NCBI GenBank assembly: GCA_018001935.1
Contig: JAGNHB010000003.1
Coordinates: 120,975 to 184,974 of the forward strand
Origin: Acidobacteriota bacterium
Lineage (GTDB): Bacteria > Acidobacteriota > JAAYUB01
Direction: 5' to 3'
DNA length: 64,000 nucleotides
A program made the translations under genes and the position numbers. The notes beneath the pieces are model-generated. The model was given only the letters and a program-made list of their open reading frames with translations, was not told where the DNA came from and searched no databases. Shown here piece after piece: positions 3,001 through 62,371 of this stretch (position 1 is its first letter; each line of letters opens with the position of its first letter).

Positions 3001-6000
3001 TCGTCGATGGAGAACATGGTCTCGAACAGCGGGTTCCGGCCGGCTTCACGGGGAAGGCCGAGGGTGTCGATGAGGTCGTCGAGCGGGTAGTCCTGGTTGT
3101 CGTACCCGCCCAGGACGGCGTCCCGCACCCGGGAGAGGAGGTCCCGGAACGCGGCCGCCCGGGGGGTGGCCAGGCGGAGGGGCAGGCTGTTGACGAACAT
3201 GCCGATGATCCCCTGCAGGGCGGCGCTGACGCGGCCCGAGGAGGGGACGCCCACCACGACGTCCTCCTGGGAGGTGTAGCGGCCGAGCAGCGCAGCGTAA
3301 GCGGCCAGGTAGACCATGAAGGCCGTGGTCCCGGTCTCGCCGGCCAGGCGGTCGACCGCGGCGGAAAGGCCCCCGGGCACGGCCCGCACGAAGACGTCCC
3401 CCTGCTCCCCGCCAAAGGCGCCCCGGGGGAAATCGACGGGGATCTCCAGCCGGGGCGGCTCCTCCCGGAAACGGTCCGTCCAGTAGGCTTTCTGGTCGGC
3501 AAAAGCGCCCGATCGCCGCGCCGCGTCCTGCCAGACGGCGAAGTCGCGGTACTGGAGCGGCAGCGGGGGGAGGCCCCGATCGACGTACAGGTCCAGCAGT
3601 TCGTTCAGCAGGATCCCCACCGAGAGCCCGTCGAAGATGATGTGATGAGCGTCGAAGAGGAGGACGTGGGCGTCCGGGCCCAGTTTCAGGAGTTCCACGC
3701 GGAACAGCGGCGGCCGGGCGAGGTCGAAGGGTCGCACGAAGGCGCGGAAGCGTTCGGTCACCTCGTCGGGCGAGGCCTCGGAACGGACCATGCGCACCTT
3801 GACGTGGGCCCGGACGCGCTGGACCGGCTCCCCCTCGTGCAGCTCGAAGCCCGTGCGGAAGGACGCGTGGCGCTCGGTGAGGGCCTCTACGGCCGCGGCC
3901 AGCCGGCCGGCGTCGAGGGGGCCGTCGATGCGGAGGACCATGGGGAGGTTGTAGGACAGGCCCGAACGCCCCATGCTCTCCACGGCGTAGAGCCGCTTCT
4001 GGGCCGAGGACGCGGGGTAGAACTCCCGCTCGGGGACCGGGACCAGCCGGGCGTGGGGGGAGGTGCTCCCGGACTCGACCCGGGCGGCCTGCCCTTCCAC
4101 GGTGGGCGTGTCAAAGAGGGCCTGCAGGGGCAGCTGGACCCCGAAGGCCTTCTCCATGGCCGCCTGGAGCATGACGGCCCGGAGGGAGTGGCCGCCGAGG
4201 GAGAAAAAGTTCTCGTCCACCCCGAAGCGGGAAACCCCCAGCACCCCCTGCCAGAGTTCGACGAGCTTCGCCTCCGTGGGTGTGGACGGGGCCTTGACGG
4301 GGCGGTCCCGGTCGACGGGGGGGCCGGGGTCCGGCAGGGCCCGGCGGTCCACCTTGCCGTTGGGGGTGAGGGGCAGCACGGGCAGCCGCACGATCCGGGC
4401 CGGGATCATGTAGGCCGGCAGCGGTTTCGCCAGGGCCTCCCGGACCGCGTCGTCGGAGAGGTCGGTCTCCGTCACGACGTAGGCGCACAGCCAATGGTCG
4501 CCTCCCTCGCCGCGAGCCGTGACCACGGCGTCCTTCACGCCGGGGACCAGGAGCAGCTGGGCCTCGATCTCCCCCAGCTCCACCCGGAAACCCCGCACCT
4601 TGACCTGGAAGTCGATCCGGCCCAGGAACTCGAGGTTGCCGTCGGGGAGCCAGCGGGCGAGGTCCCCCGTCCGGTAGGCGCGGAAACCGTGGCGGAACGG
4701 GTCGGGGATGAACTTCTCCGCCGTCAGCTCGGGCCGGTTCCGATATCCGCGGGCGGTCCCGAGGCCCGAGACGCACAGTTCGCCGGCGGCGCCGGGCGGC
4801 TGCTCCCGCCCCGCGGGGTCCAGGATGTACACCCGCGTGTTGGGGACGGGGCGGCCGATGGGGATGTTGGCCCAGGGCCGGGTCACCTCGAACCTGGTGG
4901 CCTCCACCGTGTACTCGGTGGGGCCGTAGGCGTTGACGATCCGGTAGGGCCGTTTCCGAACGGACCGGAGCTTGTCGCCGCCCATCTCCAGGCAGCGCAG
5001 GGTCCGGTTGTCGCACAGTTCCATGAACTGCTCGGCGAACTGGGTGGGGAGGATGCTGAGCGTGACGCCGTTCTCCTCGAAACAGGCGTTGACGTCCCGG
5101 GGCGACAGGCGGCTTTCCGCGGGGACCACCACCAGGCACCCGCCGGCCGAGAGGATCGGGAAGAACTCGATAACGCTGGCGTCGAAGGCGAAACCGGCGA
5201 ACTTGGACTGGCGGTCCTCCGGCGTCATGCCCTCGAAATCCGCCTGGTAGCGGCAGAGGTGGACGAGGGAGCGGTGGCTGATCTCCACGCCCTTCGGCTT
5301 GCCCGTGGTCCCGGAGGTGTAGATGACGTAAGCGGCGTCCCCGGGGTCGTTCACCGGCGGGAGCGGCGAGGGGTCCCCGGTGAAGGTCTCGTCCGCGTCG
5401 AGGAGGAGGACCGGCCCCTCGAAACCGGCCTTCCCCGCCAGGTGCCGCTGGGTGAGGAGCGCCGGTACCGCCCCGTCTTCCAGCATGTAGCGGACACGGT
5501 CGGGGGGGTAGGCCGGGTCGACGGGCAGGTAGGCCGCCCCCGCCTTCTGGATGGCGAGCAGGCCCAGCGGCATTTCCAGGCAGGGGTCCAGCAGGATGCC
5601 CACGCAGCCGTTCCGCGCGGCGCCCAGCTCCCGCAGCCGCCGGGCCAGGGCGTTGGACTTTTCGTCCAGTTCCCGGTAAGTCAGGATCTTCTCCCGGAAC
5701 CGGACCGCCGGCCGATCCGGGTGACGGGCGGCGGTCTCCGCGAAGAGGGAGACGAACGTCCGCTCCACGTCGTAGGGGACCTCGGTTGAATTGAAGCGGT
5801 CCAGCAGGGCCCGGTCCTCCGGCGAGACGAAGGGGAGGGCGTCGAAGGGCGTCCCGGGCGACCGCAGCCCCCCCTCCAGCAGGAGGGTCACGGCCCAGTG
5901 CAGGGCCTCCACGTGGCCTATGGTGTACAGATCCTCCTGGAACTGCCAGTCGAAGATCACCTGCCCATCCCGCTCCCGTCGGACGAACAGGGTCAGGGGC

Positions 6001-7139: not shown

Positions 7140-8546
7140 CTAGTGGGCGCGGTGCGCGCCCGGACGGGAAGCCGGCCGGGCGACCAGGGCGGTGGCCAGG
7201 ACGGCGAGGCCGAAGAGGACCCCGGCCAGGGCCGCCCGGTGGTAACCGGTGAGGACGAGGGCCGCCGGGGCCGCGGTGTTTGCCGCCCCCGCCGGGAAGG
7301 GGGAGGAGAAGACGGCCTCGAAGAGGCAGACCCCCAGCGTGGACCCGAGGAAGGTGAAGAGAGCGTTGGCGGCCGACACGATCCCCTCCTCGCCGGGGGG
7401 CGCGAGGTTCATGACCAGGGTGGACACCGCGGCGAAGAACGCCCCCAGGGCGGCCCCGTAGAGGGCCAGCGCCGCGATGACGACCCCGTAGCCCGTTCCG
7501 GATCCGAACAGGAGGAAAAGGGCCGTCGAAGCCACCATGGCGGCGGCGGACAGGATGCAGACCCGGCGGGGCCCCACCCGGTCCACCCAGGCCCCGAGGA
7601 AGGGCCCCAGGACGGCCGAGACAGCGGGGAAGACGATGAGGAGCAACCCGATGCGGTCGGGCGTCAGGCCGCGGACGCCGTCGAAATAGAAGGGAAACAG
7701 GAAGCTGTAGCCGTCCAGGAGCAGGGTCGAGGTCAGGGTCCCGAGCAGGGCGGCCGTCAGGTTGCGATCGGAGAAGATCCGCAGGTTCAGGACCGGCGAC
7801 GGCGCCCTGCGCTCGCGGACCACGAAGAGGACCCCGGCCAGGAGGGCGACGGCCGCGGACCCCAAGGCGCCGTGCCCGACCCACCCGTAGTCCTGGGCGG
7901 TGTTGATGCAGTAAATGAAGGCCCCGAGGGCGACGAAGCTGAGCGCCGCCCCGGCGAGATCGAAGCTTTTCCGTTCGCCGTCGCCGGCCCGGTCCCGGGG
8001 GAGGCCCAGCCAGGCCAGCAGGGCGCCCGCCACGCCGGCGGGGACATTGACGAAGAAGACCCAGCGCCAGTCGAGGTAGTGAAGAAGGAACCCGCCCACG
8101 GGGGCCCCCAGGGCGACCCCGACGCTGCCGAAGACGGCCAGGATGCCGAACGCCCGCCCCCGCACCGCCTCCGGCAGGTGCTGAACCACCACGGCGTTGG
8201 CGGTGGCGAAGATCATGGCGCCGCCCACGCCCTGCAGGAAGCGGAAGGCGCAGAGGGCCGGGAGGCCGGGGGCGAAGCCGCACGCCAGGGACCCCAGGGT
8301 GAACAGGACGTACCCCGACCCAAGGACCGTCCGGCTCCCCCAGCGGTCGGCCAGCTTCCCGAAGGTTGGCAGGAAGGCGCACAACGCGAGGAGGTAGAGC
8401 AGGACGGCCCAGCTCACGGCGCCGGTCTCGACCCCGAAGACGCGCGAGAGCGTGGGGAGGGCGATGTAGACGATGGTGGCGTCCAGGTTGGCCATGAAGA
8501 TGGCCATGGAGACGGTGAGCACGACGCGGCGGAAACTCAAGGGCAC
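7140..8546 (-). CDS. MFS transporter (DHA/drug-H+ antiporter-like, ~14 TM)
   Basis: ORF-track 468 aa, highly hydrophobic with repeated GxLaDrxGrr-like MFS signatures (FGKLADRWGSR; GAWVDRVGPRR); stop TAG 7140-7142 overlaps SD of downstream NRPS start (GTG 7130). Confidence 0.85.
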   Translation of the reverse strand: MPLSFRRVVLTVSMAIFMANLDATIVYIALPTLSRVFGVETGAVSWAVLLYLLALCAFLPTFGKLADRWGSRTVLGSGYVLFTLGSLACGFAPGLPALCAFRFLQGVGGAMIFATANAVVVQHLPEAVRGRAFGILAVFGSVGVALGAPVGGFLLHYLDWRWVFFVNVPAGVAGALLAWLGLPRDRAGDGERKSFDLAGAALSFVALGAFIYCINTAQDYGWVGHGALGSAAVALLAGVLFVVRERRAPSPVLNLRIFSDRNLTAALLGTLTSTLLLDGYSFLFPFYFDGVRGLTPDRIGLLLIVFPAVSAVLGPFLGAWVDRVGPRRVCILSAAAMVASTALFLLFGSGTGYGVVIAALALYGAALGAFFAAVSTLVMNLAPPGEEGIVSAANALFTFLGSTLGVCLFEAVFSSPFPAGAANTAAPAALVLTGYHRAALAGVLFGLAVLATALVARPASRPGAHRAH

Positions 8547-8610: not shown

Positions 8611-8770
8611 CCGCGAACCCGTCAAAAAGTCGCCAATTGGAGATTTCCCGCGAATAACGCCGATTGACCCGAATACAGAAAACAAAGAAATAAAATGACT
8701 TTTCACATTCCGATTCGCGACGATTCGCGTGATTCGCGGGCTGCAAGGGACTTTTTGCGGGGGACGTCAA
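8611..8770. repeat. Copy A of a ~150-190 bp intergenic palindromic element family (GATTCGCG-rich; shared core AAAAGTCGC..GGAGATTTCCCGCGAATAAC..TTCCGATTCGCG..GATTCGCGTGATTCGCGGG..GACTTTTTGCGGGGG)
   Basis: Near-identical stretches recur at 14920-15105 and 46395-46530; element ends are inverted repeats of each other (CCCGCGAATCACGCGAAT / ATTCGCGTGATTCGCGGG; CAAAAAGTCGC / GCGACTTTTTG). Confidence 0.75.
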
Positions 8771-8846
8771 AAGTCATTGACGCATCCCCCGGTTTCCCGA
8801 TAACATACCGTTGCTTCTCATCAGACAGCTTTCCGTGGAGACAAGC

Positions 8847-10184
8847 ATGAACCAGCCGTCCCGGATTCCCCGCACCCCGTTTCGCTGCCGGCTGTTGCCG
8901 GTCCTGACGCCCCTGCTGCTTTGGCTGCCTTCCGGTTGCGGCAGGGGGGGAGGAACCCCGCCCGGCGGGGTGGGCACCGCCCCGCCCATGACCGTGATGG
9001 TCACGGCAGCCCAGACGTGCAACGTACCCTACTTCAGCGAGTTCGTGACGTCCCTGGACGCCGGCACCAGCGGGGAGACGGTGGAGATCCGCGCCCGGGT
9101 GGAGGCGGTCCTGGTGCAGCAGCATTTCTCAGAGGGGCAGCCGGTGCGGAAGGGGCAGGTCCTTTTCACCCTCGACAGTCGCACCTACGAGGCGGACCTG
9201 AAGACCGCCCGGGCCGGTTTGAGCAAGGCGAAGGCCGACCTCGAGTACGCCCGGAACCAGGTGCTGGTGGAGCAGGCGAAGGCCGACCTCGAGTCCGCCC
9301 AGGCCCAGCTCGCCCTCGCCCGGGTCAACGAGGCGCGGCTCAAACCCCTGGCGGAACAGAAGGCGGTCCCCCAGCAGGATTACGACGACGCGGCCACCGC
9401 GCTGCTCACCGCATCGGCCGCCGTGAACGCCAAGAAAGCCAACCTCGACACCGTGGCGCTCAACCGGAAAGTGTCCATCGAGCAGGCCGAGGCCGCGGTC
9501 CTCTCCGCCGAGGCCGACATCCGGCGGGCGGAGATCAACCTGGAGTACTGCACCGTCTGTTCCCCCATCGCCGGCCTGGCGGGCCGCCGCCAGGTGGCGC
9601 CCGGGAACCTGGTGGGCCACGGGGAGGCGACCCTGCTGACCTCCGTCTCCGCCCTGGACCCCGTGCGGGTGACCTTCAGCATCTCCGAGACCGACTACCT
9701 CCGGCACATGGAGATCGTGAAGCGCCAGGGGCAGGACACCGGCAGCCTGGAACTGGAACTCCTTCTCTCGGACGGGAAGAGCTACCCGCACAAGGGTCGG
9801 ATCCTCGTCGCCGACCGGGCCGTCGACGCCCGGACCGGGACCCTGTCCATCATCGGGGAATTCCCCAACCCGGACCGGCTTCTCCGTCCCGGCATGTACG
9901 GGCGGGTCCGCTTCCGGAGCTTCCGGATGGAAAACGCCCTGGTCATTCCCCTGAAGGCGGTGGGGGACCTCCAGGGGGCGAAGACGGTCCTGGTGGTGGG
10001 GACCGACGGCAAGGTCTCGCTCCGGACCGTCAGGCTCGGCCCGGCGTGGGGCGAACGGGTCGTGGTCCTCGAGGGGCTCAAGGCGGGGGAGAACGTGATC
10101 GTGGAAGGCCAGGTCAAGGCCCAGCCGGGGATGACCGTGAAACCCCAGGCGCAGCCCATGCCGGCGGGCGGGGAGGACCGGTGA
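8847..10184 (+). CDS. RND efflux membrane fusion protein (periplasmic adaptor, AcrA/MexA family), lipoprotein
   Basis: ORF 8811..10184; ATG 8847 with GGAG 8 nt upstream; lipobox LPSGC; coiled-coil region (LKTARAGLSKAKADLEYARNQ...) and C-terminal beta-barrel/MP domains typical of HlyD_D23 adaptors; stop TGA overlaps next start (gTGATGg). Confidence 0.85.
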   Translation: MNQPSRIPRTPFRCRLLPVLTPLLLWLPSGCGRGGGTPPGGVGTAPPMTVMVTAAQTCNVPYFSEFVTSLDAGTSGETVEIRARVEAVLVQQHFSEGQPVRKGQVLFTLDSRTYEADLKTARAGLSKAKADLEYARNQVLVEQAKADLESAQAQLALARVNEARLKPLAEQKAVPQQDYDDAATALLTASAAVNAKKANLDTVALNRKVSIEQAEAAVLSAEADIRRAEINLEYCTVCSPIAGLAGRRQVAPGNLVGHGEATLLTSVSALDPVRVTFSISETDYLRHMEIVKRQGQDTGSLELELLLSDGKSYPHKGRILVADRAVDARTGTLSIIGEFPNPDRLLRPGMYGRVRFRSFRMENALVIPLKAVGDLQGAKTVLVVGTDGKVSLRTVRLGPAWGERVVVLEGLKAGENVIVEGQVKAQPGMTVKPQAQPMPAGGEDR

Positions 10185-11653
10185 TGGGACGGCGCACCCG
10201 GCTCCCCTCCCTCGCGGTACCCGTCCTGGGGGTGCTGCTGGGGATGCTGCAGGCCGCCTGCCTCGGGCCGAAGTACGTCCGGCCCACCGTGCCCGTCCCG
10301 GACGCCTTCCGCGGGGCGGAGACCGCCCCGGTTGAAGCGTCGGGGAAGACCTACGGCGACCTGGGCTGGGAGGAGATCTTCAAGGACGAGACCCTGCGGG
10401 GCCTGATCCGCCGGGCGCTGGAGCACAACCCCGACGCCCGGCTGGCGGCCGAGCGGATCGAGGAGGCGAGGGCCTCCCTCCGTATCACGCGGTCCGCGCA
10501 GTACCCGACGGCGTCCGGCGCCGCGGATTTCCAGGCCTGGCGGGACTCCGGCGCCACCAGCGGCGCCTATCCCGGCGCGGAGCGGACCACCTCCTCCTTC
10601 GAGTCGTACGTCCAGGCCGTGTTCGAGCTGGACTTCTGGGGCCGCCTGAGACGCTCCACCGAGGCCGCCCGGGCCCAGCTCCTGGCCACGGAGGAGGCGC
10701 GGCGGACCGTGGCGCTCGGGTTGACGGCCGAGGTGGCCACGGCCTACCTCAGCCTGCGGGAGATGGACCTGGAGCTGGAGATCTCCCGGAAGACCCTGGC
10801 ATCGCGCCTGGAGTCGCTCAAGCTGGTGAAGGCACGCCAGGAAGGCGGGGTCGCCACCCTGCTGGACGTGGACCAGGCCCAGGGGCTCGTGGACCAGGCC
10901 CGCACCACCATCGCCGGACTCGAGCGGCAGGCCGCCCAGCAGGAAAACTACCTCTGCGTCCTCCTGGGGTCGAACCCCGGGGACATCCCGCGGGGAAAAC
11001 CCGTCACGGAGCAGATGGACGCCCCGGAGGTCCCGCCGGGCCTCCCCTCCGGGCTGCTGGAGCGGCGGCCGGACATCCGGCGGGCAGAGCAGAACCTGAT
11101 CGCCGCCAACGCCGGGGTCGCGGTGGCCCGGGCCGAGTACTTCCCGAAGTTCACCCTGACGGGTTCCGCCGGCACCCTCAGCGAGGACTTCAACCACCTC
11201 TTCTCCCGCTCCAGCCTGACGTGGAGCGTCATGCCGCAGCTCACCGTTCCGGTCTTCAACGCGGGGAAGGTGAAGGCCGGCGTGAGGCAGGCGCGGTCGC
11301 GGTACCGGCAGGCGCTCATCACGTACGAGCAGACCGTCCTGCAGGCGTTCCGGGAAGTGGCTGACGCCCTAGTGGGCTACGCCAAGCAGCGGGAGTACCG
11401 CCGGCTCCAGGAGTCGGCCACCGCCACCCTCGCGGACCAGGCCCGCCTGTCGAACCTGCGGTACTCGGGGGGCGTCACCAGCTACCTGGAGGTCCTGGAT
11501 TCCGAGCGGCAGTACTTCAGCGCCCAGCTGACCCTGGCCCAGGCCGTCCGCGACGAGTTCGGGGCGCTGGTCTATCTCTACAAGGTCCTGGGCGGCGGGT
11601 GGAAGGCCGCCGCTTCCCCGGCCGGGGCGCCCGCCCCGTCGCCGGGCCCCTGA
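10184..11653 (+). CDS. Outer membrane efflux protein (NodT/OprM family, RND OMF lipoprotein)
   Basis: In ORF 8921..11653 frame (N-terminal 420 aa of that ORF is out-of-frame read-through of the MFP gene). Real start ATG 10184 (ATGA overlap with MFP stop). Lipobox LQAAC; two OEP repeats (LRITRSAQYPTASGAADFQ... / EYFPKFTLTGSAG...) and C-terminal VLGGGW typical of OprM/NodT. Confidence 0.85.
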   Translation: MGRRTRLPSLAVPVLGVLLGMLQAACLGPKYVRPTVPVPDAFRGAETAPVEASGKTYGDLGWEEIFKDETLRGLIRRALEHNPDARLAAERIEEARASLRITRSAQYPTASGAADFQAWRDSGATSGAYPGAERTTSSFESYVQAVFELDFWGRLRRSTEAARAQLLATEEARRTVALGLTAEVATAYLSLREMDLELEISRKTLASRLESLKLVKARQEGGVATLLDVDQAQGLVDQARTTIAGLERQAAQQENYLCVLLGSNPGDIPRGKPVTEQMDAPEVPPGLPSGLLERRPDIRRAEQNLIAANAGVAVARAEYFPKFTLTGSAGTLSEDFNHLFSRSSLTWSVMPQLTVPVFNAGKVKAGVRQARSRYRQALITYEQTVLQAFREVADALVGYAKQREYRRLQESATATLADQARLSNLRYSGGVTSYLEVLDSERQYFSAQLTLAQAVRDEFGALVYLYKVLGGGWKAAASPAGAPAPSPGP

Positions 11654-11686
11654 CCGTCCGCCAACGCCGTCGACCGAGGAAGAGGA

Positions 11687-14600
11687 ATGGCCAAGTTTTT
11701 CATTAACCGCCCCATCGTCGCCATGGTGATCTCCATCGTGATCGTTCTCGCGGGGGTCGTCTCCCTCGGCGGGCTCCCCGTGGCCCAGTACCCGGACATC
11801 GTGCCGCCCGAGATCCTCGTGTCGGCCTTCTTCACCGGCGCCGACTGCCAGACGCTGGAGCAGGCGGTGGCAACCCCGCTCGAGCAGCAGATCAACGGCG
11901 TGGACAACATGCTCTACGTGCGGTCCACCAATGGCAACGACGGGTCCATGGCCCTCACCGTGGACTTCGCGGTGGGCACCGACGTCAACACCGACCAGGT
12001 GCTGACGCAGAACCGGGCGTCCCAGGCCACCGCCTCCCTCCCCGAGGACGTCAAGGCCTACGGGGTGACCGTGCAGAAGTCCACGTCCACCCTCCTGTTC
12101 ATTTACTCCCTCTACTCGCCGGACAACGTCTACGACCGCCTCTTCCTCTCCAACTACGCCTACATCAACCTCAACGACGCCCTCCTGCGGGTGCCGGGGG
12201 TGAGCCAGGTGTCCGTCCTGGGGGCTTCCCCCTACGCCATGCGCGGCTGGCTCGACCCGGGGAAGCTGGCCCGGCTGAACCTCACCATCGAAGACGTCGT
12301 CTCCGCCGTCAAGGAACAGAACAACGCCAACCCCGCCGGGCAGATCGGCACCGAGCCCGCCCCGCCCGGCCAGCAGTTCACCTACAGCGTGCGGGCGCAG
12401 GGCCGGCTGGTGCAGGCGGAGGAGTTCGGCGAGGTCGTGATCCGGGCCAACCCCGACGGCTCCATGGTCCGGCTCAAGGACGTGGCGAGGCTCGAACTCG
12501 GGGCCCAGTTCTACAACACGGTGGGCCGCTACAACGGAGCGCCCGCCGCCCTCGTCGCCGTCTACCAGGCGCCGGGCTCCAACGCCCTGGAGGTGGCCGC
12601 GGGGGTCAAGCAGGCCATGGCGGACCTCGAAAAACGCTTTCCCCCCGGGCTGAAGGCCGTCCTGTCCCTGGACACCACCCTGGCGGTCAGCTCGGGTATC
12701 GAGGAGATCGTCGTCACGCTGCTGGAAGCCATGGTGCTGGTGATCCTGGTGGTCTACCTGTTCCTCCAGAGCTGGCGCGCCACCCTGATCCCCCTGCTCA
12801 CGGTGCCCGTCTCCCTGGTGGGGACCTTCATGGTCTTCCCCCTGCTGGGTTTCTCCATCAACACCCTCACCCTCTTCGGGATGGTCCTGGCCGTGGGGTT
12901 GGTGGTGGACGACGCCATCGTGGTGGTGGAGGCGGTGGAAGCCCACATGGAGCGGGGCCTCGACCGGAAGGCCGCCACGCTCAAGGCCATGGAGGAGGTC
13001 ACCTCCCCCGTCGTGGCCGTGGCGCTGATCCTGGCGGCTGTCTTCGTCCCGGTGGCCTTCATGGGCGGGATCACGGGGCGGCTCTACCAGCAGTTCGCCC
13101 TCACCATCGCCATCTCGGTGCTCATCTCCGCCTTCAACGCCCTGACCCTGAGCCCCGCCCTCTGCTCCCTCCTCCTCAAGCACCGGGGCGACAAGGGGAA
13201 AAAGAGCCTCCTGGGCCGGTTCTTCGGCGGCTTCAACCGGGTCTTCGACCGGGCGGTCGATGGCTACGTGGGGATCTCCCGCTTCCTCGTCCGCCGCACC
13301 GTGCGGACCTTCCTCCTCCTGCTGGCCATGACGGGCGGCATGCTCTTCATCGGGGCGAAGCTCCCCGGCGGCTTCGTGCCGGACGAGGACCAGGGCTACT
13401 TCTTCCTCAACGTCTCCCTTCCCGAGGCGGCCTCGCTGCAGCGCACCGACGCCCTCATGCGGAAGGTGGAGCAGGTGCTGGAGAAGACCCCCGGCATCGA
13501 GGGGTACACCACCATCAGCGGGTTCAGCCTCCTGAGCGGGGTCAGCAGCACCTTCACCGGTTTCGCCTTCGTCACCCTCAAGCCCTGGGACGATCGGAGG
13601 GGGCCGGGGGAGGACGCCAAGTCGATCCTCAACGGCCTCAACCGCAAGCTGTCGTCCCTCCCGGAGGCGATGGTGTTCGGCTTCCTCCCCGCGGCCATCC
13701 CCGGCGTCGGCAAGTCCGGCGGTTTCAGCTTCATGCTCCAGGACCGGAGCGGGGGCGACGTCAAGTTCCTGGCGGACAACGTGGACAAGTTCCTCGACGC
13801 CGCCCGGAAGCGGCCGGAGCTGGCCAACGTCAGCACCATGTTCCGGGCCGAGGTCCCGCAGCTCTACGCGGACGTGGACCGGCCCAAGTGCGCCAAGCTG
13901 GGCGTGGACGTGGGGAGCGTCTACCTGACCCTCCAGACCTTCCTGGGCGGGTGCTACGTGAACGACTTCAACCGTTTCGGGCGGCAGTGGAAGGTCTACC
14001 TCCAGGGGGCGCCCGACGACCGTGTGCGGCGGGAGGACATCGGGAAGTTCTTCGTCCGGGCGGGCGACGGGACCACCGTGCCGCTCTCGTCGGTGGTCAC
14101 CATCCGGGAGACCAACGGGCCCGAGTTCACCAACCGTTTCAACCTCTTCCGCGCCGCGGAGATCAACGGGTCCGCCGCGCCCGGCTACAGTTCCGGGCAG
14201 GCGATGAACGCCCTGGAGGAGGTGGCGAACACGGTCCTCCCCCGCGAGATGGGCTACGACTGGAGCGGCATGTCCTACCAGGAGCGGAAGGCCCCCGCCT
14301 CGGCCGGCGTCTTCGCCCTCTCCCTCGCCTTCGTTTTCCTGATCCTGGCAGCCCAGTACGAGAGCTGGTCGCTGCCCTTCAGCGTGCTTCTCGGCACGCC
14401 CGTCGCCGTGCTGGGCGCCTTCGTCGGCCTGCTGTCCCGGCGGCTCGAGAACGACGTCTTCGCCCAGGTCGGGCTCGTCATGCTGGTGGGGCTCGCCGCC
14501 AAGAACGCCATCCTCATGGTGGAGTTCTGCAAGGCGGAGCTGGAGAAGGGGCGTCCCCTCGTCGACGCCGCCCTGGCCGGCGCCCGGGCCAGGCTGCGGC

Positions 14601-14875
14601 CCATCCTCATGACCTCCTTCGCCTTCGTCCTGGGCTGCGTCCCGCTCTGGGTGGCCCAGGGCTCCGGGGCCATCTCCCGCCAGATCCTGGGGACGGTGGT
14701 CATCGCGGGGATGCTGGCCTCCACCCTCATCGGCATCTTCGTCGTTCCCGTCCTCTTCGTCCTGGTGGAGTCTTTGGCGCACCGGAGGGGGAAGGCCCCC
14801 GCGCCTCCGGCGGAACCGGGGAATCCGGTCCCCGCACCGCCGGGCGGGGAAGCGCAGTGTCCACCCGCGGAGTGA
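11687..14875 (+). CDS. RND multidrug efflux pump, inner-membrane transporter (HAE1/AcrB family)
   Basis: 1062 aa; N-terminus MAKFFINRPIVAMVISIVIVLAGVVSLGGLPVAQYPDI is the canonical AcrB start; 12 TM with two large periplasmic loops; RBS GAGGAAGAGGA. Confidence 0.95.
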   Translation: MAKFFINRPIVAMVISIVIVLAGVVSLGGLPVAQYPDIVPPEILVSAFFTGADCQTLEQAVATPLEQQINGVDNMLYVRSTNGNDGSMALTVDFAVGTDVNTDQVLTQNRASQATASLPEDVKAYGVTVQKSTSTLLFIYSLYSPDNVYDRLFLSNYAYINLNDALLRVPGVSQVSVLGASPYAMRGWLDPGKLARLNLTIEDVVSAVKEQNNANPAGQIGTEPAPPGQQFTYSVRAQGRLVQAEEFGEVVIRANPDGSMVRLKDVARLELGAQFYNTVGRYNGAPAALVAVYQAPGSNALEVAAGVKQAMADLEKRFPPGLKAVLSLDTTLAVSSGIEEIVVTLLEAMVLVILVVYLFLQSWRATLIPLLTVPVSLVGTFMVFPLLGFSINTLTLFGMVLAVGLVVDDAIVVVEAVEAHMERGLDRKAATLKAMEEVTSPVVAVALILAAVFVPVAFMGGITGRLYQQFALTIAISVLISAFNALTLSPALCSLLLKHRGDKGKKSLLGRFFGGFNRVFDRAVDGYVGISRFLVRRTVRTFLLLLAMTGGMLFIGAKLPGGFVPDEDQGYFFLNVSLPEAASLQRTDALMRKVEQVLEKTPGIEGYTTISGFSLLSGVSSTFTGFAFVTLKPWDDRRGPGEDAKSILNGLNRKLSSLPEAMVFGFLPAAIPGVGKSGGFSFMLQDRSGGDVKFLADNVDKFLDAARKRPELANVSTMFRAEVPQLYADVDRPKCAKLGVDVGSVYLTLQTFLGGCYVNDFNRFGRQWKVYLQGAPDDRVRREDIGKFFVRAGDGTTVPLSSVVTIRETNGPEFTNRFNLFRAAEINGSAAPGYSSGQAMNALEEVANTVLPREMGYDWSGMSYQERKAPASAGVFALSLAFVFLILAAQYESWSLPFSVLLGTPVAVLGAFVGLLSRRLENDVFAQVGLVMLVGLAAKNAILMVEFCKAELEKGRPLVDAALAGARARLRPILMTSFAFVLGCVPLWVAQGSGAISRQILGTVVIAGMLASTLIGIFVVPVLFVLVESLAHRRGKAPAPPAEPGNPVPAPPGGEAQCPPAE

Positions 14876-14919
14876 GCGGAGGCCCCGAGCGCAAGCCGGC
14901 GTTGATGGGCCCGCAACAA

Positions 14920-15105
14920 GTCTTTTTTGCCCGCGAATCACGCGAATGAACGCGAATCAACAACTGACGGGGCCGCAAAAAGTCGCGAAAGGGAGATTTC
15001 CCGCGAATAACACGAATAATATCTAGTAGTTTTTGAATTCTGATTCGCGTTTATTCGCGTGATTCGCGGGCAAAATGCGACTTTTTGCGGGGGTGTCAAC
15101 GTTCG
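14920..15105. repeat. Copy B (most complete) of the GATTCGCG-rich palindromic intergenic element
   Basis: Left arm CAAGTCTTTTTTGCCCGCGAATCACGCGAATGAACGCGAATCA is the reverse complement of right arm TGATTCGCGTTTATTCGCGTGATTCGCGGGCAAAATGCGACTTTTTGCGGGGG; nested IR CCGCAAAAAGTCGCG / CGCGACTTTTTGCGG; matches copies at 8611-8770 and 46395-46530. Confidence 0.75.
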
Positions 15106-15214: not shown

Positions 15215-15649
15215 ATGAAACAAGGCAAAAAGTGTGACGTTCAGAATGAATGTCTTTCAACACCGGCGGATGCGATGATGGCCGTGGCCATCCTTGCCGT
15301 TTCCTCGGACGGCAAATTGGCCAAGCGGGAGATGGACGGCTTGAAGAGCATTCTGGTTTCCAGTGAGCTTTTCAGGAAAGTGGAAGACCCCGGGGAGTAC
15401 ATTCGACACATCGCCTCCAGCCTCATCGAAAAAGAGTACGACGACGTCCTGGACGCGGTGACGGCCCTGCTCTCGCCGAGTCTCCGGGAGACGGCCTATG
15501 CCTGGGCGGTATACATGGTGGCGGTTGACCGCAAGCAGGTGGGTCCGGAACACTTTTTCCTGGAAAAACTGCGAAAGAAACTGGGGATACACGTGGCCCT
15601 GGCCGGAAAAATCAAGGCGGTGGTCCCGATGTTGATCCGTACAAAATAA
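15215..15649 (+). CDS. TerB-like (tellurite-resistance TerB family / DjlA N-domain-like) protein
   Basis: 144 aa ORF in a locally lower-GC stretch; pattern AMMAVAILAVSSDGKLAKREMDGLKSIL ... ETAYAWAVYMVAVDRK resembles the paired helical TerB fold signature; RBS GGGGAGGAG upstream. Confidence 0.45.
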   Translation: MKQGKKCDVQNECLSTPADAMMAVAILAVSSDGKLAKREMDGLKSILVSSELFRKVEDPGEYIRHIASSLIEKEYDDVLDAVTALLSPSLRETAYAWAVYMVAVDRKQVGPEHFFLEKLRKKLGIHVALAGKIKAVVPMLIRTK

Positions 15650-20097: not shown

Positions 20098-20500
20098 GAA
20101 GGGACAAGGGACAAAGGACCAAAAGGACCCAAAGGACATAAAGGACGGCGGGGAGTGAAGGGGCATCGTGTTCCGGGACCCGGACGGCGTTCTCGGCACC
20201 CTTCGGGTTCCCCGCACGGGTTGAGTTCTCCTCACGGGTCAGGTTTTGTCACGGGTTGGGTTTCTCCGCAGCAGCCGGGTTCCCCGCGGCAGCCGGGTTC
20301 TCCACACCCGTTACGCTTGATGGTCTCGTAAAAAGTCGGAAAAGGAACGGGAAAAGGTCTGTAAGACGTTTGTTTGAGCCATCACCCGGAGGGTGATGGT
20401 ACTTATTGCGACCGCGTCACGCTTCGTAAGCCTCTCCCGGGCCTGCCGTCCTTTATGTCTTTTATGTCCTTTTGGTCCTTTGTCCCTTGATCCCTTGACC
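20098..20500. repeat. Large palindromic intergenic element: inverted arms of tandem degenerate octamers (AAAGGACN)n flanking a ~290-bp non-coding core
   Basis: Left arm 20098-20150 GGGACAAGGGACAAAGGACCAAAAGGACCCAAAGGACATAAAGGACGG; right arm 20440-20500 is its reverse complement at about 85% identity; core has degenerate tandem GGGTTnnnTTCTCC..CAC units and a perfect hairpin CCATCACCC-GGAG-GGGTGATGG (20381-20401). It fills the whole space between convergent genes (stops 20071 and 20506). Confidence 0.8.
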
Positions 20501-27562: not shown

Positions 27563-27600
27563 ATCCACGGTTGTCCGTGTCGATCCGTGTTCATCCGTGG
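27563..27600. repeat. Tandem decamer repeat arm (ACACGGATSR)n with CCACGG/CCGTGG ends
   Basis: CCACGGTTGTCCGTGTCGATCCGTGTTCATCCGTGG; its reverse complement matches CCACGGATGGACACGGATGGACACGGATG at 43024-43050. Confidence 0.6.
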
Positions 27601-32024: not shown

Positions 32025-32185
32025 GAATGACCTCCGTGTGCCTCGAAAGGAAGCGCAGACGTGCGGCCTATTTCACCACAAAGCCGCCGGGCCGCCAAGC
32101 ACTTTTGACGCGCTGCCCCCGAAGTGGCGGCGGCTTCAGCCCAATGTCCCTGACATTTGATACCCTCGCAAAAAGCCCTTTTCTC

Positions 32186-32277
32186 TCACAGAGGCACGGA
32201 GGCACAGAGAAATGCAAATCGTATTTAATAGAATCAACAATCCTTATGATTCTTCTCCGTGCCTCTGTGAGATCACA
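32186..32277. repeat. 16-bp perfect inverted repeat (TCACAGAGGCACGGAG / CTCCGTGCCTCTGTGA) enclosing a ~60-bp AT-rich loop
   Basis: Sits between the PPIase stop (32304) and amidohydrolase start (32024) on the minus strand; the only strongly AT-rich (about 30% GC) segment of its size in the window. Confidence 0.6.
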
Positions 32278-32303
32278 ACCAGGACTTTTTACGAGGTCAT
32301 CAA

Positions 32304-43023: not shown

Positions 43024-43072
43024 CCACGGATGGACACGGATGGACACGGATGCATTCATCCGTCGTTTGTCT
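43024..43072 (+). terminator. Tandem decamer repeat (CCACGGATGGACACGGATGGACACGGATG) running into a small hairpin and T-rich tail; likely terminator
   Basis: ACGGATG-CATT-CATCCGT hairpin (43046-43063) followed by CGTTTGTCT; immediately after stop 43023. Confidence 0.5.
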
Positions 43073-45286: not shown

Positions 45287-45485
45287 CCCGGGTCGAAACC
45301 GGCGGCTGCGGGAGCGGGGGAATCTCCGCCCCCGGGGTCATGCCCGGCCGGCAAACCCTTTCCCCCGACGCTCAAGCGTTCGACTCCACCCAGCCGCAAA
45401 GAACGCAGAGAACACAAAGAAAGATAAGGCTTTACATACACTTTCCTCTTCGTTTCCCGACTTTTTGCGACCGCGTCATCGTTGA

Positions 45486-46382
45486 TTAACGCGTCTGAAA
45501 CCAGAAAGAAGCCCCGTTGAAGATCGGCTCCCTCCCGACGGCCTCCCCGAAGACCGCCTGCATGGCGGCCGCGCGGGTGCGCGACATGAAGTGGGTGGCG
45601 AAGACCACCTCGCACCGCGGGTTGCCGGCCAGGAAGGCGTGGAGGAGGTACTGCTCGGTGTAGAACATCCGCACGTAGACGTCGGGGTAGTCGAAGGGGA
45701 TGAACACGTCGTGAACGTGCACCAGCACGCCGGGGGGAAGGGACGGGAGGACCCGGCAGTAGAGGAAAGGCAGGTCCCCGCCCCGGCGGCAGACGTGGCT
45801 GGAGTCGATGAACAGCAGGGTCCCCGGGCCAGGGAGGTCGGCCAGGAGCGAGCTGTCCTCCACCCGCCGGTACTCGACGGCGTGGGCGAGGTTTTCGACG
45901 GCGCGACGGGGGGCGGGGTCGATGACCCGGATCTTCGACGGGAGCCCCAGGTGGTCAACGGCCGCCCGGGCGACGGCGGTGCTGTAGCCCGACCCCACCT
46001 CGGTGACGGCCGTCGGCCGGAACCACCGGATCATGGCAGCGTAGAGCTCGGCGTCGGGGGTGGGGTAGAACCCGTTGTGAATCAGGCCGCGGGCGGCGTA
46101 GTCGACCCCCCGGAAGCCGGGGTTGATGCCGGGGTCGCCCCGCAGCCGCGCGAAGAGGCGGCGGCAGTCGTCGTCCCCGAGCGGGCCGAGAAAGGCCGCC
46201 ATCTTCTCCGCGTCGAGGAGGAGGCCCTCGTCGCCCGACCGGTACCGGGGGGCCAGGCCGTCCTCCTCCCGGAACCCGGGGGGGATCAGTTCGGACCGGA
46301 GGGTGTCCAGGAGGCGGAGGTCCGCTTTCGACAGGAAGCGCAGGCCGGTTTTGCGGGCGATACGGTTCCAGGTGCTGCTCAC
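45486..46382 (-). CDS. Class I SAM-dependent methyltransferase (O-methyltransferase-like)
   Basis: In ORF 45486..46643, whose N-terminal ~85 aa run through the repeat element and tRNA region and are not genic; probable GTG start 46382; VTEVGSGYSTAVARAAVDHLG (SAM motif I-like), LLFIDSSHV. Confidence 0.55.
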   Translation of the reverse strand: MSSTWNRIARKTGLRFLSKADLRLLDTLRSELIPPGFREEDGLAPRYRSGDEGLLLDAEKMAAFLGPLGDDDCRRLFARLRGDPGINPGFRGVDYAARGLIHNGFYPTPDAELYAAMIRWFRPTAVTEVGSGYSTAVARAAVDHLGLPSKIRVIDPAPRRAVENLAHAVEYRRVEDSSLLADLPGPGTLLFIDSSHVCRRGGDLPFLYCRVLPSLPPGVLVHVHDVFIPFDYPDVYVRMFYTEQYLLHAFLAGNPRCEVVFATHFMSRTRAAAMQAVFGEAVGREPIFNGASFWFQTR

Positions 46383-46394
46383 GTTTGATGCTCC

Positions 46395-46530
46395 CGCAAT
46401 CAGTCGCCAACTGGATATTTCCCGCGAAAAACGCCAATTGACGCGAATAACGAATACAACTAAATGAAAGGACTTGTGATATTCCGATTCGCGAAGATTC
46501 GCGGGTGTAAACAGACTTTTTTCACGGCCG
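46395..46530. repeat. Copy C of the GATTCGCG-rich palindromic intergenic element
   Basis: AGTCGCCAACTGGATATTTCCCGCGAAAAACGCC...TTCCGATTCGCGAAGATTCGCGGG...GACTTTTTTCACGG aligns with copies A and B. Confidence 0.7.
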
Positions 46531-46544: not shown

Positions 46545-46585
46545 CCCTAAAAAACGGGGCCGGCGCACGCGGCGCCGGCCCGGGG
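46545..46585 (-). terminator. Rho-independent terminator downstream of tRNA-Ser (minus strand)
   Basis: Minus strand: GGCCGGCGCCGCGTGCGCCGGCC hairpin then CCGTTTTTTAGGGGG. Confidence 0.7.
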
Positions 46586-46675
<90 letters not shown>

Positions 46676-49683: not shown

Positions 49684-52600
49684 ATGAAAAAGCCGGGGCG
49701 CCCGCCTTGCACCCTGAATATGTTGAGGATGGCCGTACTCTGCCTGTTGTCGACCCTGGCGGGGCCCTGCGCCCTCCTCGCCCTCGACCCCCACCGGGCG
49801 GTCACCCAGTACATCCTGGAGACCTGGACCAGCGAGAACGGCCTGCCCCAGAACACCGTGCACCGGATCCTGCAGACCCGGGACGGCTTCCTCTGGATCG
49901 GCACCGAGAGCGGGCTGGTCCGCTTCGACGGGATCGAGTTCAGGCTCTTCAACCGGGCCAACACGCCCGCCCTGAGCCGCAACAGCATCCAGGGCCTGTA
50001 CGAGGACCGCAAGGGGACCTTGTGGGTCGGCAACGACGGCGGCGCCTGCTGTTACGCCGCGGGGCGTTTTTTCGACACGCCCGCCACGGTGCAGCTCCGG
50101 GACAAGCCCGTCACGTCCTTTTTCGAGGACGCGACGGGCACCCTGTGGGCGGTGGGGCGGCACGCGGTCTACCGTCTCCGCTCGCTGTCGGCCCAGGCCT
50201 TCCCCGTCCCCATGCGGTTGACGTCGACCTCCCTCCACCAGCGGCAGGCGGTCAACGTCCTTTTCGAGAACGACGGGGGAGTGCTCTTCGCGGGCACCAA
50301 CACGGGGCTTTTCCGCCTGGAGGGCGGGCGGTTCCGGCCGGAACCCGGCTTCGAGACGACTCCGGTGCGCATGGCCTTCCGCGACCGGTCGGGGACCCTC
50401 TGGATGGTGTCGGGCGGCGGCAACTGGCACCGGGTCGCCAGGGGCGGTTTCGAGCCCGTGGTCCGCCCCGGCGGCGAGGGCCTGTCGCCCGGCTCCTTCA
50501 TCAGCGCCGTGGTGGAGGACCGGGACGCCAACCTCTGGGTGGGCACGGCCCGGGACGGGATCCGGCGGATCCACGGGGGGGCCCTGGCCCGCCTGACCGG
50601 GCAGGAGGGGCTCAACGACAACTTCATTCGCTGCCTGTACGAGGACCGGGAGGGGAGCCTCTGGATCGGGACCCACGGCGGGGGCCTGACCCGCCTCAAG
50701 GACGGGAAGCTCTCGGTCCTGGGCCGCCCGGAGGGGCTGCCGGACGAAATGACCTGGTGCGCCCTGGAAAGCCGTTCCGGTCACCTCTGGGTCGGCTCCG
50801 AGGGCGGGCTCACCCGGTTCGACGGCAGCCGGTGCGAGACCTTCGACCTTTCGCGGGGCCTGTCCAACAACAGCGTCCACTGCCTGTACGAGGACCCCGC
50901 CAGGACACTCTGGATCGGCACCTGGAGCGGTGGGCTCAACCGGATGGAAACGGGGGGGAGAATCACCCCGGTGGTGCTTCCCGGCCTGTCCTCCGGCGAG
51001 ATCCTCTCGTGCATCGTGCCCTCCCGGGACGGCTCCCTATGGATCGGCACGCGCGGCGGGGGACTCAAGCGCCTGCGGGACGGGGTCATACAGGCCTGGA
51101 CGACCCGAAACGGCCTCTCCTCCAACGATGTCCTGGCGGTGGCGGAGGACCGGGACGGGACCCTCTGGGTCGCCACCGACGACGGGTTCGACCGCTTGGC
51201 CGACGGCCAGGTCCGACCGGTCGGTCAGGAACCCTGGAAACTGCACCTGCGGAGCCTCTTCCTCGACCGGGAGGGCACCCTGTGGGCCGGGACGAACCAG
51301 TACGGCCTGGTGGGCATCCGCGACGGCCAGGCGCGCGTCTACGGCGCCGCCCAGGGCTTCACCGAGGACCCGGTCACGGCCATCATCGACAACGCGGCGG
51401 GGGATACGCTCTGGGTGTCCACCTTCAACGGGATTCATGCGGTGCTGCGGAAAGACCTCGACGCCCTCGACGCGGGGCTGCTCTCCCGACTCCCCTGCCG
51501 GGTCTTCGGCCCCGCGGACGGGATGCGTAACCGCGAGTGCAACGGCCTGTCCCACCCCCCGGCCTGCCGGTACCGCCTGGGCCGGCTCTGGTTCCCCTCG
51601 GTTTCGGGCGTGGTGATCGTGGACGAGCGCTTCATGAAGCGCAACCCGGTGCCGCCGCCCGTCTCCATCGAGACCGTCACCGTGGACGGGGAGCACCACC
51701 CGGCGGAGGGCACGCCGGAGTACCCCCCCGGCGTGGGGTCCCTCGAGTTCCACTACACCGCCCTGAGCCTGCTGTGGCCTCACCAGGTGCGCTTCAAGTA
51801 CCGCCTCGAGGGGTACGACGCCGGGTGGGTCGACCCGGGGGCCCGCCGGGACGCCTACTACACCAACCTGCCGCCGGGCCGGTACACCTTCCGGGTCATC
51901 GCCTGCAACAACGACGGGGTGTGGAACCAGGCGGGGGCGGCCTTCTCCTTCTACCTCCGGCCGCGGTTCCACCAGACCGTGGGGTTCCAGGCGCTGGTGG
52001 TTCTCGCCCTTGCGCTGGGCGCCTGGGGGATGCTCCACCTGCGGGTCCGCCACCTCAAGGCCCGCAAACGGGAGCTGGAGGAGCGGGTGACGGAGCGCAC
52101 CGAACAACTGGCCGAGGCCAACCGGAAACTCCAGGAACTGGACCGGATGAAGACGGACTTCCTGAACATGGCGGCCCACGAACTCCGGACCCCGCTCACC
52201 TCCGTGGTGGGCTTCGCCAAGATCGTCCGGAAAAAGCAGGAGGAACTGCTGGCGCTGGTCCCCGGGATCGAGGCCGCCCGCAACCCGCGCAGCCTGGCCC
52301 AGGTCCGGGGCAACATGGACATCATCGTCTCGGAGGGGGAGCGCCTGACCCACCTCATCAACGACCTTCTGGACATCGCCAAGCTGGAGGCCGGCAAGAT
52401 CGAGTGGCGCATGGAGCGGCTCGAGGTCGGGGAACTGGTGCGCCACGCCGTGGAGTCCACCTCGTCCCTGTTCGAGCAGTACCGCCTGTCCGCGGAAGAG
52501 CGGGTGGACCCCGGCCTGCCCGCGGTCCGGGGGGACCGCGAACGCCTGTTGCAGGTCCTGCTCAACCTCCTCTCGAACGCCGTGAAATTCACGCGGGAAG

Positions 52601-56817: not shown

Positions 56818-56868
56818 GTTATCGCGCCAAAGGACGAAAGGACCCAAAGGACCAAAACGACCCAAAGG
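56818..56868. repeat. Solo octamer array (AAAGGACN)n arm plus conserved core start (third locus; no inverted partner)
   Basis: CCAAAGGACGAAAGGACCCAAAGGACCAAAACGACCCAAAGGACGGAGAGCGCGAAAAGGGTCGGGG; the post-array GGACGGAGAG.GCG..GGGT.GGGG matches locus 59676-59740. Confidence 0.7.
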
Positions 56869-57061
56869 ACGGAGAGCGCGAAAAGGGTCGGGGAAGCGAA
56901 AGGCCACGGGGGCATGCGCCGCCCCGGTTCCCAAAGACGACCCGCTCCCCGGTGGAGATTCGACATTGGTAACGGGGGCGGCCGCCCGGAAACCCGTCAG
57001 CGCCGCGCGCGTGAGCAAGCGATTAAAGATCTGACCTTTACCACTCCCTCACGGTCGTGGC

Positions 57062-62237: not shown

Positions 62238-62371
62238 GATCCACCTCCAAACGTACATCTCACTGTACAGTATACCGCGCTTCGGTGCGCGTGACACCGA
62301 AAAAGTAACAGCCGGTATCGTAACCGGCACTTCTTTCAGGCTACCGTACACCCTTTCAGGAAATGACTGAT

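Follow-up and report, generated by a model that had tools for sequence, protein, structure and literature searches.

Three homologous elements in intergenic regions

The stretch analysed here (hereafter, the window) comprises 64,000 nt of contig JAGNHB010000003.1 from an Acidobacteriota bacterium, and the subject of this study is a small hairpin-like element that it contains in three copies, A, B and C. Copy A (8611-8770) lies between a major facilitator superfamily (MFS) gene (7140-8546, minus strand) and the divergent adaptor gene (8847-10184, plus strand) of a resistance-nodulation-division (RND) operon that extends over positions 8847-14875 of the plus strand. Copy B (14905-15098) is located 30-56 nt past the stop codon of the pump gene of this operon (11687-14875) and upstream of a hypothetical gene (15215-15649). 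Copy C (46392-46527) is placed between the terminator of a tRNA-Ser gene (46586-46675, minus strand) and the start of a Methyltransf_24 gene (45486-46382, minus strand; GTG at 46383-46381), and by this position it constitutes the 5′ leader of the methyltransferase gene. An earlier note on this DNA had proposed three homologous copies at these places and had named the MFS gene, the RND operon, the methyltransferase and the tRNA-Ser as their neighbours; our analysis agrees on both counts, but moves the start of copy B from 14920 to near 14905. The spurious long open reading frames (ORFs) that it had described do run through copies A and C, where AT-rich hairpins mislead ORF callers in a GC-rich genome. 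As judged by the RND pump protein, the nearest relatives of the source are ~65% identical.

Alignment and direct reading showed that the three copies are mutually homologous and all intergenic. They measure 136-194 bp and have a GC content of ~45-50%, compared with ~70% for the window as a whole. In a repeat search of the window, A aligned with C at 83% identity across 107 nt, non-repetitive loop included, and a 45-nt block was common to A, B and C at 80-82% identity. When up to three mismatches were allowed, ATTTCCCGCGAATAAC gave six matches (0.21 expected; 0 in 100 shuffles), all six inside the copies, and the octamer GATTCGCG was found nine times in the window (3.5 expected), again exclusively inside A, B and C. 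The shared near-identical blocks of the earlier note are real, although not all of them are intact in every copy: an exact match to GGAGATTTCCCGCGAATAAC is confined to A and B, and one to GATTCGCGTGATTCGCGGG to A, B reading TATTCGCGTGATTCGCGGG at the corresponding place; C has a degenerate form of GACTTTTTGCGGGGG.

The copies have a common arm design (plus-strand coordinates are given throughout). Each arm is made of about three tandem heptads whose starts are 9-10 bp apart, CGCGAAT in the left arm and ATTCGCG in the right one, with an AT-rich loop between arms and a TTTTGCC...GGCAAAA frame around them. Both arms lie inside an outer inverted repeat, CCGCAAAAAGTC / GACTTTTTGCGG, to which TGAC ... 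GTCA is often added. The right arms are well preserved, while the left arms are degenerate in A and C. In copy A, the left outer motif CCGTCAAAAAGTCGCC (8619-8634) pairs in the fold with the right outer motif GGGACTTTTTGCGGGGG (8747-8763, exact match 8749-8762); the left arm (8647-8676), defined by direct reading and alignment, contains the degenerate heptads CGCGAAT / CGCCGAT / CCCGAAT, and the right arm (8707-8741) contains three ATTCGCG units, with GATTCGCG at 8712, 8722 and 8731, followed by GGC. In copy B, a first outer motif CCCGCAACAAGTC with a T-run (14910-14922) precedes an outer left arm of three CGCGAAT units (CCCGCGAATCACGCGAATGAACGCGAATCA, 14930-14959), which is part of a 35-nt inverted repeat, 97% complementary, that pairs 14925-14959 with 15041-15075. 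The left half of B is tandemly duplicated, outer motif and heptad array being present twice, and the duplicate (14973-15019) contains CCGCAAAAAGTCGCG as second outer motif, the GGAGATTTCCCGCGAATAAC block and an array of degenerate heptads. The right arm of B, three ATTCGCG units plus GGC, occupies 15041-15071 and its right outer motif GACTTTTTGCGGGGG occupies 15079-15093. Copy C is decayed: its left arm (46421-46457) reads CGCGAAA / CGCCAAT / CGCGAAT / ACGAAT and its right arm (46481-46505) holds two copies of GATTCGCG plus GG, that is, two heptads and not three.

Folding followed the same gradient. The RNA fold of copy B was very strong (-95.2 kcal/mol, z = -9.9); A folded as a long imperfect hairpin of moderate strength (z = -4.9 and -5.1 on the two strands), and C folded no better than shuffled sequence (z about -0.7). 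Each copy has the layout of a long imperfect palindrome, but only in B is the palindrome strong. The terminal inverted repeats attributed to B do exist, in the form of the 35-nt repeat together with the outer pairs, while what had been taken for a nested repeat is the tandem duplication of its left half; the termini are imperfect in A and decayed in C. Small size, absence of coding sequence, inverted termini and several homologous copies (three in 64 kb) are features of miniature inverted-repeat transposable elements (MITEs). The earlier note had read the copies as a mobile element, either a MITE or similar to repetitive extragenic palindromic (REP) sequences, and the evidence favours this reading in view of the short, repeated, non-coding and intergenic nature of the copies, of their inverted arms and of the mobility of elements with the same termini in other genomes; the arms, however, are arrays of direct heptads and not REP-type palindromes. 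A search of the window against Rfam 15 returned only tRNA-Ser above the gathering score and nothing credible for A or B at E values up to 10.

Heptad arrays in other genomes bracket GxxExxY genes

Heptad arrays were searched for in other genomes with the generic pattern CCGCGAAT-N2-3-CGCGAAT-N2-4-CGCGAAT. Array- or GxxExxY-bearing loci of other genomes are labelled L plus a number, and the gene calls within them are crude and ORF-based. The CGCGAAT triple array was present in 32 contigs of viral origin and in at least 120 from metagenomes, either alone or paired with a second, inverted array. In 167 non-redundant arrays, the array was framed as TTTT-R-N-CCGCGAAT and followed by A-rich sequence, the same frame as in copy B, and the spacers were purine-rich and ended in A. 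A clear inverted partner, at a loop distance of 3-200 nt, accompanied about a quarter of the arrays, and many more had a degenerate one; the inverted repeat reached only ~3 nt past the arrays. Comparison of orthologous loci (L066/L095 and L061/L107) showed that heptads are kept and spacers changed. Scanning GTDB with the right-arm pattern gave three true hairpins in metagenome-assembled genomes of other phyla, labelled Kuenenia, Chitinophaga (both contigs planctomycete-like by gene content) and Chloroflexi, plus two chance matches in coding sequence. A metagenome search with a pattern specific to the composite element gave no match, and blastn against cultured phages and plasmids gave nothing meaningful.

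Single arrays lay 0-40 nt after the stop codon of an ORF on the same strand in 30 cases, compared with 9 antisense ones, whereas at gene starts the orientation was unbiased (18 vs 18). The bias at stops is explained by the geometry of the arms, which border on host genes at their outer end and on cargo or remnant at their inner one. We considered this bias as a sign of an RNA-level function and dropped it, geometry being sufficient to produce it.

Not every match to the pattern is homologous. In L032, a prophage of Paraburkholderia phymatum, the match is an operator-like run of five GCGAATTA-type repeats (4135-4182); a 461-aa gene follows after ~70 nt, an integrase gene and recT are close by, and the repeats look like operator or iteron sites. 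On the viral contigs L013, L025, L030 and L037, as many as four arrays of differing flavour follow one another in phage intergenic spacers, usually facing the next gene (CGCAGAG, CGCAAAG, CACAGAG and GGGAGTA at 2569-2725 in L025). No prior description of these repeats, or of heptad arrays flanking GxxExxY genes, was found in the searchable literature, whose coverage is incomplete. The family of hairpin elements with heptad-array arms is widespread and apparently undescribed.

Some of these elements carry a gene. In the loci chosen for their arrays, every GxxExxY gene was tightly bracketed by inverted arrays, with the start codon 3-40 nt past the left array and the stop codon 3-30 nt before the right one, so that the whole cassette measures 0.48-0.56 kb. 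The assignment relies on NCBIfam TIGR04256 (E = 1e-35 to 1e-42) and on Pfam PF13366 (PD-(D/E)XK). Gene-carrying elements with the same termini were found in L084, L092, L113, L128, L131, L133, L151 and L160, and GxxExxY was the only recurrent cargo between arrays. In place of the IS200/IS605-type transposase suggested in the earlier note, or of a REP-associated tyrosine transposase (RAYT), the gene found elsewhere between such arms encodes a GxxExxY PD-(D/E)XK protein. In L122, a cas2-like ORF (VVAYDISDDRRRTRL...) sits at 943-1318 between two outward-facing CGCGAAT-type arrays.

A second sample consisted of GxxExxY genes picked by protein alone, namely viral loci and six isolate genes. Both protein-chosen viral loci (2/2) had inverted arrays, of the CGCGAAA/CGCAAAA and CACGAAA flavours. 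Among the isolates, the genes of Bacteroides finegoldii and Bernardetia were flanked by inverted arrays of three CACAGAG units, that of Treponema saccharophilum by a perfect 11-bp inverted repeat containing CACGGAT, and that of Gemmatirosa had a CGCGGAT hairpin doublet 40 nt downstream; the gene on a Fusobacteria plasmid had a 22-bp direct repeat containing ATCCGTG and the Persicobacter gene had no flanking repeat.

The GxxExxY family, also known as PDDEXK_3, is listed as being of unknown function and has undergone many horizontal transfers (PMC3424549). Its P-D ... E-x-K signature is conserved, and a single Udaeobacter subfamily accounts for ~8000 protein clusters. Comparison with PDB sequences, PADLOC and PHROGs gave no significant match. 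In L113 and L128, two alleles of the dsbA-vkor locus described below, Arg replaces Lys in E-x-K (IVELRAV), Lys being present in L160 and in the family consensus, and these two copies may be inactive, to judge from this substitution. In L158 (1440-1900), the longest ORF, which begins ahead of the left array, takes in the right one as well; arrays with a 9-nt period would there be translated into tripeptide repeats (TAKDAKSAK...), which may explain odd N-terminal repeats in annotated GxxExxY proteins.

Insertion and internal deletion in relatives

The L113-type GxxExxY protein belongs to Ca. Udaeobacter / Chthoniobacterales, where the cassette is found between dsbA and vkor in many samples, with 39-nt spacers filled by the arrays. 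When the exact protein was looked up across many contigs, it was always at this locus. Strains whose DsbA is 84-89% identical have an empty site, at which dsbA and vkor overlap by ATGA with nothing in between (...GGCATGACCGTATCGCG...). The filled site reads ...GGCATGAGCGTAT|GTACCCGCGAAT... at its left junction and ...CCGCGGGCTGATCCT|ATGACTGTCT... at its right one; ~10 bp (ATGACCGTAT) are duplicated, and the dsbA stop and vkor start codons are preserved. In a third allele, L146, both arrays persist together with the ~33 initial codons of the gene, but ~300 bp are missing, which leaves a hairpin with a 146-nt loop. These alleles are direct evidence of insertion and show by what route a cassette can become a gene-less hairpin.

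Gene-less forms also vary. The 65-bp hairpin of L014 has a perfect 10-bp direct repeat on its flanks, and other gene-less hairpins differ between Udaeobacter strains. Comparison of L177 (1330-1430) with L160, L176 and L180 showed that, upstream of dsbA, one Udaeobacter strain has a CGCGAAT hairpin in place of the left arm of an older GACGAA/ATTCGTG-type hairpin. The spacer between vkor and a response-regulator gene contains a GAGCAAGAG-type hairpin in some Udaeobacter strains and measures only 26-42 nt in others; in L177 it carries a 16-bp tandem duplication. As in copy B, the left end of the cassette is tandemly duplicated in L133 (2805-2890) and in L159 (1355-1480). The duplicated part comprises the array and the first bases of the gene and, in L159, host flank too. 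Taken together, insertion of the cassette with a ~10-bp duplication, its internal deletion to a hairpin and polymorphism between strains are shown in these relatives.

Other heptad arrays in the window

To place the three copies in their context, we scanned the window for 7-mers repeated three times or more at a spacing of 8-11 bp, with dinucleotide shuffles as control. The scan returned 25 arrays (6.3 ± 2.5 in shuffles), 18 of which lie outside called genes, even though called genes cover 81% of the window. At least 13 intergenic regions hold three to five tandem related units of 8-10 bp, many of them as inverted pairs, and about half of the longer intergenic regions bear some array flavour. 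Heptad-array elements form a far larger group in the window, and A, B and C represent a single flavour of it. The units of an array are alike at any one site but differ from site to site, and most flavours fit the consensus C-R-C-R-R-A-D. They include CACGGAT (43024-43054 and 27573-27600), CACGAAA / CACGGAA (37222-37246/37380-37405 and 62372-62420), CACAGAGG (32187), CGCAAAGAA (45395-45422) and AAAGGAC (20112/20448, 35768-35802/35950-35991, 56827-56871 and 59680-59722/59769-59803). Their neighbours are ordinary housekeeping genes; dnaJ, ABC transporter, peptide deformylase and toxin-antitoxin genes are among those next to intergenic arrays.

One of these elements (32155-32300) shares its outer motif with A-C (CCTCGCAAAAAGCC ... 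GACTTTTTACGAGG) but has arms of a different flavour, CACAGAGG/CACGGAGG; its arm heptad is the one that flanks the Bacteroides finegoldii GxxExxY gene (L174). The element at 20105-20489, between convergent genes, is a 48-nt inverted repeat (92% complementary) with AAAGGAC octamers, each arm of which reads in the sense direction directly past the stop codon of its own gene; it encloses a unit with a 9-bp hairpin, CCATCACCC-GGA-GGGTGATGG, and with outer motifs in degenerate form (TCTCGTAAAAAGTCGG ... TACTTATTGCGACC). Directly after outer-motif-like T-runs, TTGCGACCGCGTCA occurs at 20400-20425 and 45459-45485, and the end of the element may have a conserved extension of this kind (...TTTTTGCG-N3-5-GTCA). 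A segment of lower GC3 (60344-62351) contains a WG-repeat protein gene and a Phd/RelE toxin-antitoxin pair, and upstream of the antitoxin gene there are five CACGAAA repeats, which end 20 nt before its start. Two sets of tandem repeats in coding sequence are unrelated to the arrays: five ~339-bp units (57241-58837) in a minus-strand gene for an 817-aa protein, and 126-bp units (49867-51208) in a gene for a 1111-aa protein (49684-53019).

Several known motifs were compared with the arrays by inspection and rejected. CsrA-type GGA sponges, Shine-Dalgarno-like enhancers, three-frame stop cassettes, phased A-tract curvature and the consensus RNA polymerase pause fitted only some heptad flavours; integron attC sites and arrays of Chi, FtsK-orienting polar sequences (KOPS) or DnaA boxes showed no consensus match; and a Rho utilization (rut) site was discarded, the arrays being G-rich.

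Promoters and terminators around the copies

Promoter-like hexamers are found on either side of copy A and outside it, at 8596-8568 on the minus strand and 8777-8806 on the plus strand. This suggests that A was inserted between the two promoters of the MFS and RND genes and does not supply them, and it leaves the conserved regulatory module contemplated in the earlier note without support. Exaptation is possible.

Regarding termination, the tRNA-Ser gene is followed by a canonical intrinsic terminator (46557-46581, minus strand; 10 GC pairs and T6). The genome therefore uses ordinary terminators of this kind, and the heptad hairpins are something else. No terminator-like site was detected at A or within C: a scan of the C region returned two sites, one of which belongs to the tRNA-Ser terminator, while the other is weak and lies beyond the element. 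Two weak terminator matches at the ends of B have no conserved counterpart in A or C. An intrinsic terminator has a GC-rich stem with an immediate U-run, an arrangement that the elements lack; in the family, the T-run precedes the arm and an A-run follows it.

Origin of the elements and alternative explanations

The explanation that we favour, with a probability of roughly 0.7, is that A, B and C belong to a family of tiny mobile hairpins that extends across phyla and whose full-length members are GxxExxY cassettes, the three copies being gene-less, non-autonomous (MITE-like) and partly decayed. The termini of the family would be inverted arrays of about three tandem heptads, and a full-length member would be a ~0.5-kb cassette in which the arrays bracket one GxxExxY gene (PF13366, PD-(D/E)XK nuclease fold). 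The window copies are best read as MITE-like derivatives of the mobile cassettes on the grounds of common termini and architecture, as seen when L084 (TTTTTGCCCGCGAATTACGCGAATGAACGCGAAT ... ATTCGCGGGCAAAAAA) is set beside copy B (TTTTTTGCCCGCGAATCACGCGAATGAACGCGAAT ... ATTCGCGGGCAAAA). The heptads would act as binding sites of the mobilising protein, one per subunit, at both ends. The GxxExxY protein could be that mobilising nuclease, a suggestion that we rate at somewhat less than an even chance, and we attach the same weight to its being a passenger, with an unlinked transposase as the mobilising enzyme. The loop sequence is common to A and C, for which reason the copies of the window most likely multiplied as gene-less units; given that no target duplication survives and that C is decayed, they are probably old.

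Several observations weigh against this explanation. The window contains no GxxExxY gene and no transposase: a six-frame profile search found no GxxExxY remnant (no other protein family was tried on the elements themselves), and the cognate transposase that the earlier note had proposed to look for was not among the ~40 window proteins scanned. Target-site duplications, which it had also proposed as a check, were not above chance at A, B or C, nor was there a systematic exact duplication across 28 hairpins, whose distribution was the same as in the control. In other genomes, no cassette was seen to carry the outer motif CCGCAAAAAGTC. The loci behind the first GxxExxY association had been chosen for their arrays and are a biased sample and, in the isolate genes, one out of six lacked a flanking repeat and another one had a direct instead of an inverted repeat. 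Finally, the AlphaFold model of GxxExxY, built from a shallow alignment, was unusable (pLDDT 36).

An alternative that we regard as unlikely is that the hairpins are kept for a function at the RNA level, as RNase III sites, 3′ stabilisers or terminators. It is attractive for copy B, which forms a 35-bp near-perfect stem 56 nt past the stop of the RND pump gene, and it would agree with the excess of single arrays after same-strand stops and with the 28-bp heptamer-bearing stem of the Coxiella 23S rRNA intervening sequence (IVS), which is cut by RNase III (PMC4990558). However, C does not fold, most arrays have no partner arm or a degenerate one, spacers in opposite arms are often not complementary, the T-run before the stem and the A-run after it are the reverse of an intrinsic terminator, the orientation bias is accounted for by geometry, and insertion polymorphism is left unexplained. 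Decidedly improbable, in our opinion, is a host regulatory module in which the arrays are operators bound cooperatively once per helical turn, with A co-regulating the MFS/non-ribosomal peptide synthetase and RND operons. Three direct repeats 9-10 bp apart are a classic layout for cooperative binding, A does lie between divergent genes, heptads are conserved where spacers vary between orthologous loci, and the Paraburkholderia prophage has five similar repeats in an operator-like arrangement ahead of a gene. Against this stand the inconsistent positions of the copies (after a stop, between divergent genes and just upstream of a start), the unrelated functions of the neighbouring genes, the location of the promoter-like hexamers outside A, the presence of some array flavour in about half of the longer intergenic regions, and the fact that the same arrays bracket a mobile cassette and vary in presence between strains.

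Mobility of a different kind, through REP sequences or their hairpin-forming doublets (REPINs) moved by a RAYT (an IS200/IS605-type Y1 transposase), seems very improbable to us. The family resembles REPINs in being extragenic and multi-copy and in its mixture of single arrays and inverted pairs that form hairpins, often close to the 3′ ends of genes, a layout described in PMC3116915. The arm unit is nevertheless a direct heptad array and not a short palindrome with a conserved 5′ tetranucleotide, GxxExxY is the only recurrent gene between arms, the same heptads recur across phyla, unlike lineage-specific REPs, and the ~40 window proteins scanned include no Y1 transposase. In addition, transposition of the IS200/IS605 type makes no target duplication, and one of ~10 bp is seen in relatives. 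We give almost no credence to the idea that the arrays are independent products of replication slippage in AT-rich spacers, with neither common descent nor mobility. Slippage would agree with arrays that are homogeneous within sites and different between them, and with frequent local duplications (the left half of B, L133, L159 and the 16 bp in L177); it fails to account for the 83% identity of A and C over 107 nt including a non-repetitive loop, for the recurrence of the same heptad, frame and spacing in hundreds of contigs, and for the restriction of heptads to C-R-C-R-R-A-D.

If the copies are gene-less mobile hairpins, their present effects on the host would be side effects. Transcribed stems of 27-35 bp would be RNase III substrates by analogy with the Coxiella IVS. 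Copy B would put its 35-bp near-perfect stem into the 3′ region of the RND transcript as a plausible RNase III or exonuclease-blocking site, and A would sit amid two divergent promoters without providing them.

A wider proposal, which we put forward tentatively and consider doubtful as a whole, is that GxxExxY is the nuclease/transposase of a new cross-phylum class of autonomous elements of ~0.5 kb, binding one heptad per subunit, with the IVS and its S23p protein as a sister class, and that much of the intergenic DNA of soil Acidobacteriota, Verrucomicrobiota and related phyla and of their phages consists of gene-less derivatives. If true, it would give a first functional context to the very large uncharacterised GxxExxY family, account for a pervasive intergenic DNA feature of abundant, poorly studied soil phyla, and join the 23S rRNA IVS to a general class of mobile cassettes. 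Heptad hairpins probably also break metagenome assemblies. The Bacteroides GxxExxY cassette with CACAGAG arrays is a tractable example.

Comparison with known systems

Cyanobacterial short tandemly repeated repetitive (STRR) sequences are intergenic tandem heptamers of several sequence types and of unknown function. Unlike the arrays described here, STRR units are contiguous and present in many copies and, to our knowledge, they have not been linked to inverted doublets or to GxxExxY. About three direct repeats per end, inverted between ends, are also found in Mu (L1-L3/R1-R3), in the TnsB sites of Tn7 and in the subterminal repeats of plant hAT and CACTA elements, and the RCGAAA cores of Mu end sites look similar to the CACGAAA and CGCGAAA flavours; these are, however, multi-kilobase elements with binding sites of ~22 bp and DDE transposases, and we know of no DDE transposase whose ends match heptad arrays.

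With REP/REPIN-RAYT systems the family shares dense extragenic singlets, hairpin-forming inverted doublets and a single-gene "master" copy bracketed by repeats; it differs in the repeat unit, in the associated protein, in the target duplication and in heptads that are not lineage-specific. With MITEs and mobile insertion cassettes (MICs) it shares small size, multiple copies, inverted termini and gene-less forms arising by internal deletion, and its relatives show a ~10-bp target duplication and insertion polymorphism. In contrast to those elements, its termini are short direct-repeat arrays and not a single inverted repeat from a known insertion sequence family, and the recurrent cargo is one conserved nuclease-fold family across phyla.

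The closest described relatives are the 23S rRNA IVSs. Those of Coxiella and Leptospira are selfish cassettes of ~0.4-0.5 kb with one small ORF for S23p, a four-helix-bundle protein of unknown function. The Coxiella IVS measures 444 nt and has a 28-bp terminal stem with three tandem GACAGAT heptamers, whose number is strain-variable; it contains a small S23p ORF, and one strain carries a 176-bp internal deletion of this ORF (PMC4990558). The distribution of IVSs is sporadic, suggesting horizontal transfer, and their origin and mobility are still called unclear (PMC4990558). The two groups differ in their sites, which are helix 25 or 45 of 23S rRNA for IVSs and intergenic or intra-operon here; in the heptamers, contiguous (period 7) in IVSs and with a period of 9-10 here; and in the cargo, GxxExxY and not S23p in the relatives, with no ORF in A-C. 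They coincide in the size of the full-length forms, in heptad arrays and internal deletions, and in stem length, the ~28-bp stem with tandem heptamers of the IVS being matched here by arms of 27-35 bp with three heptads.

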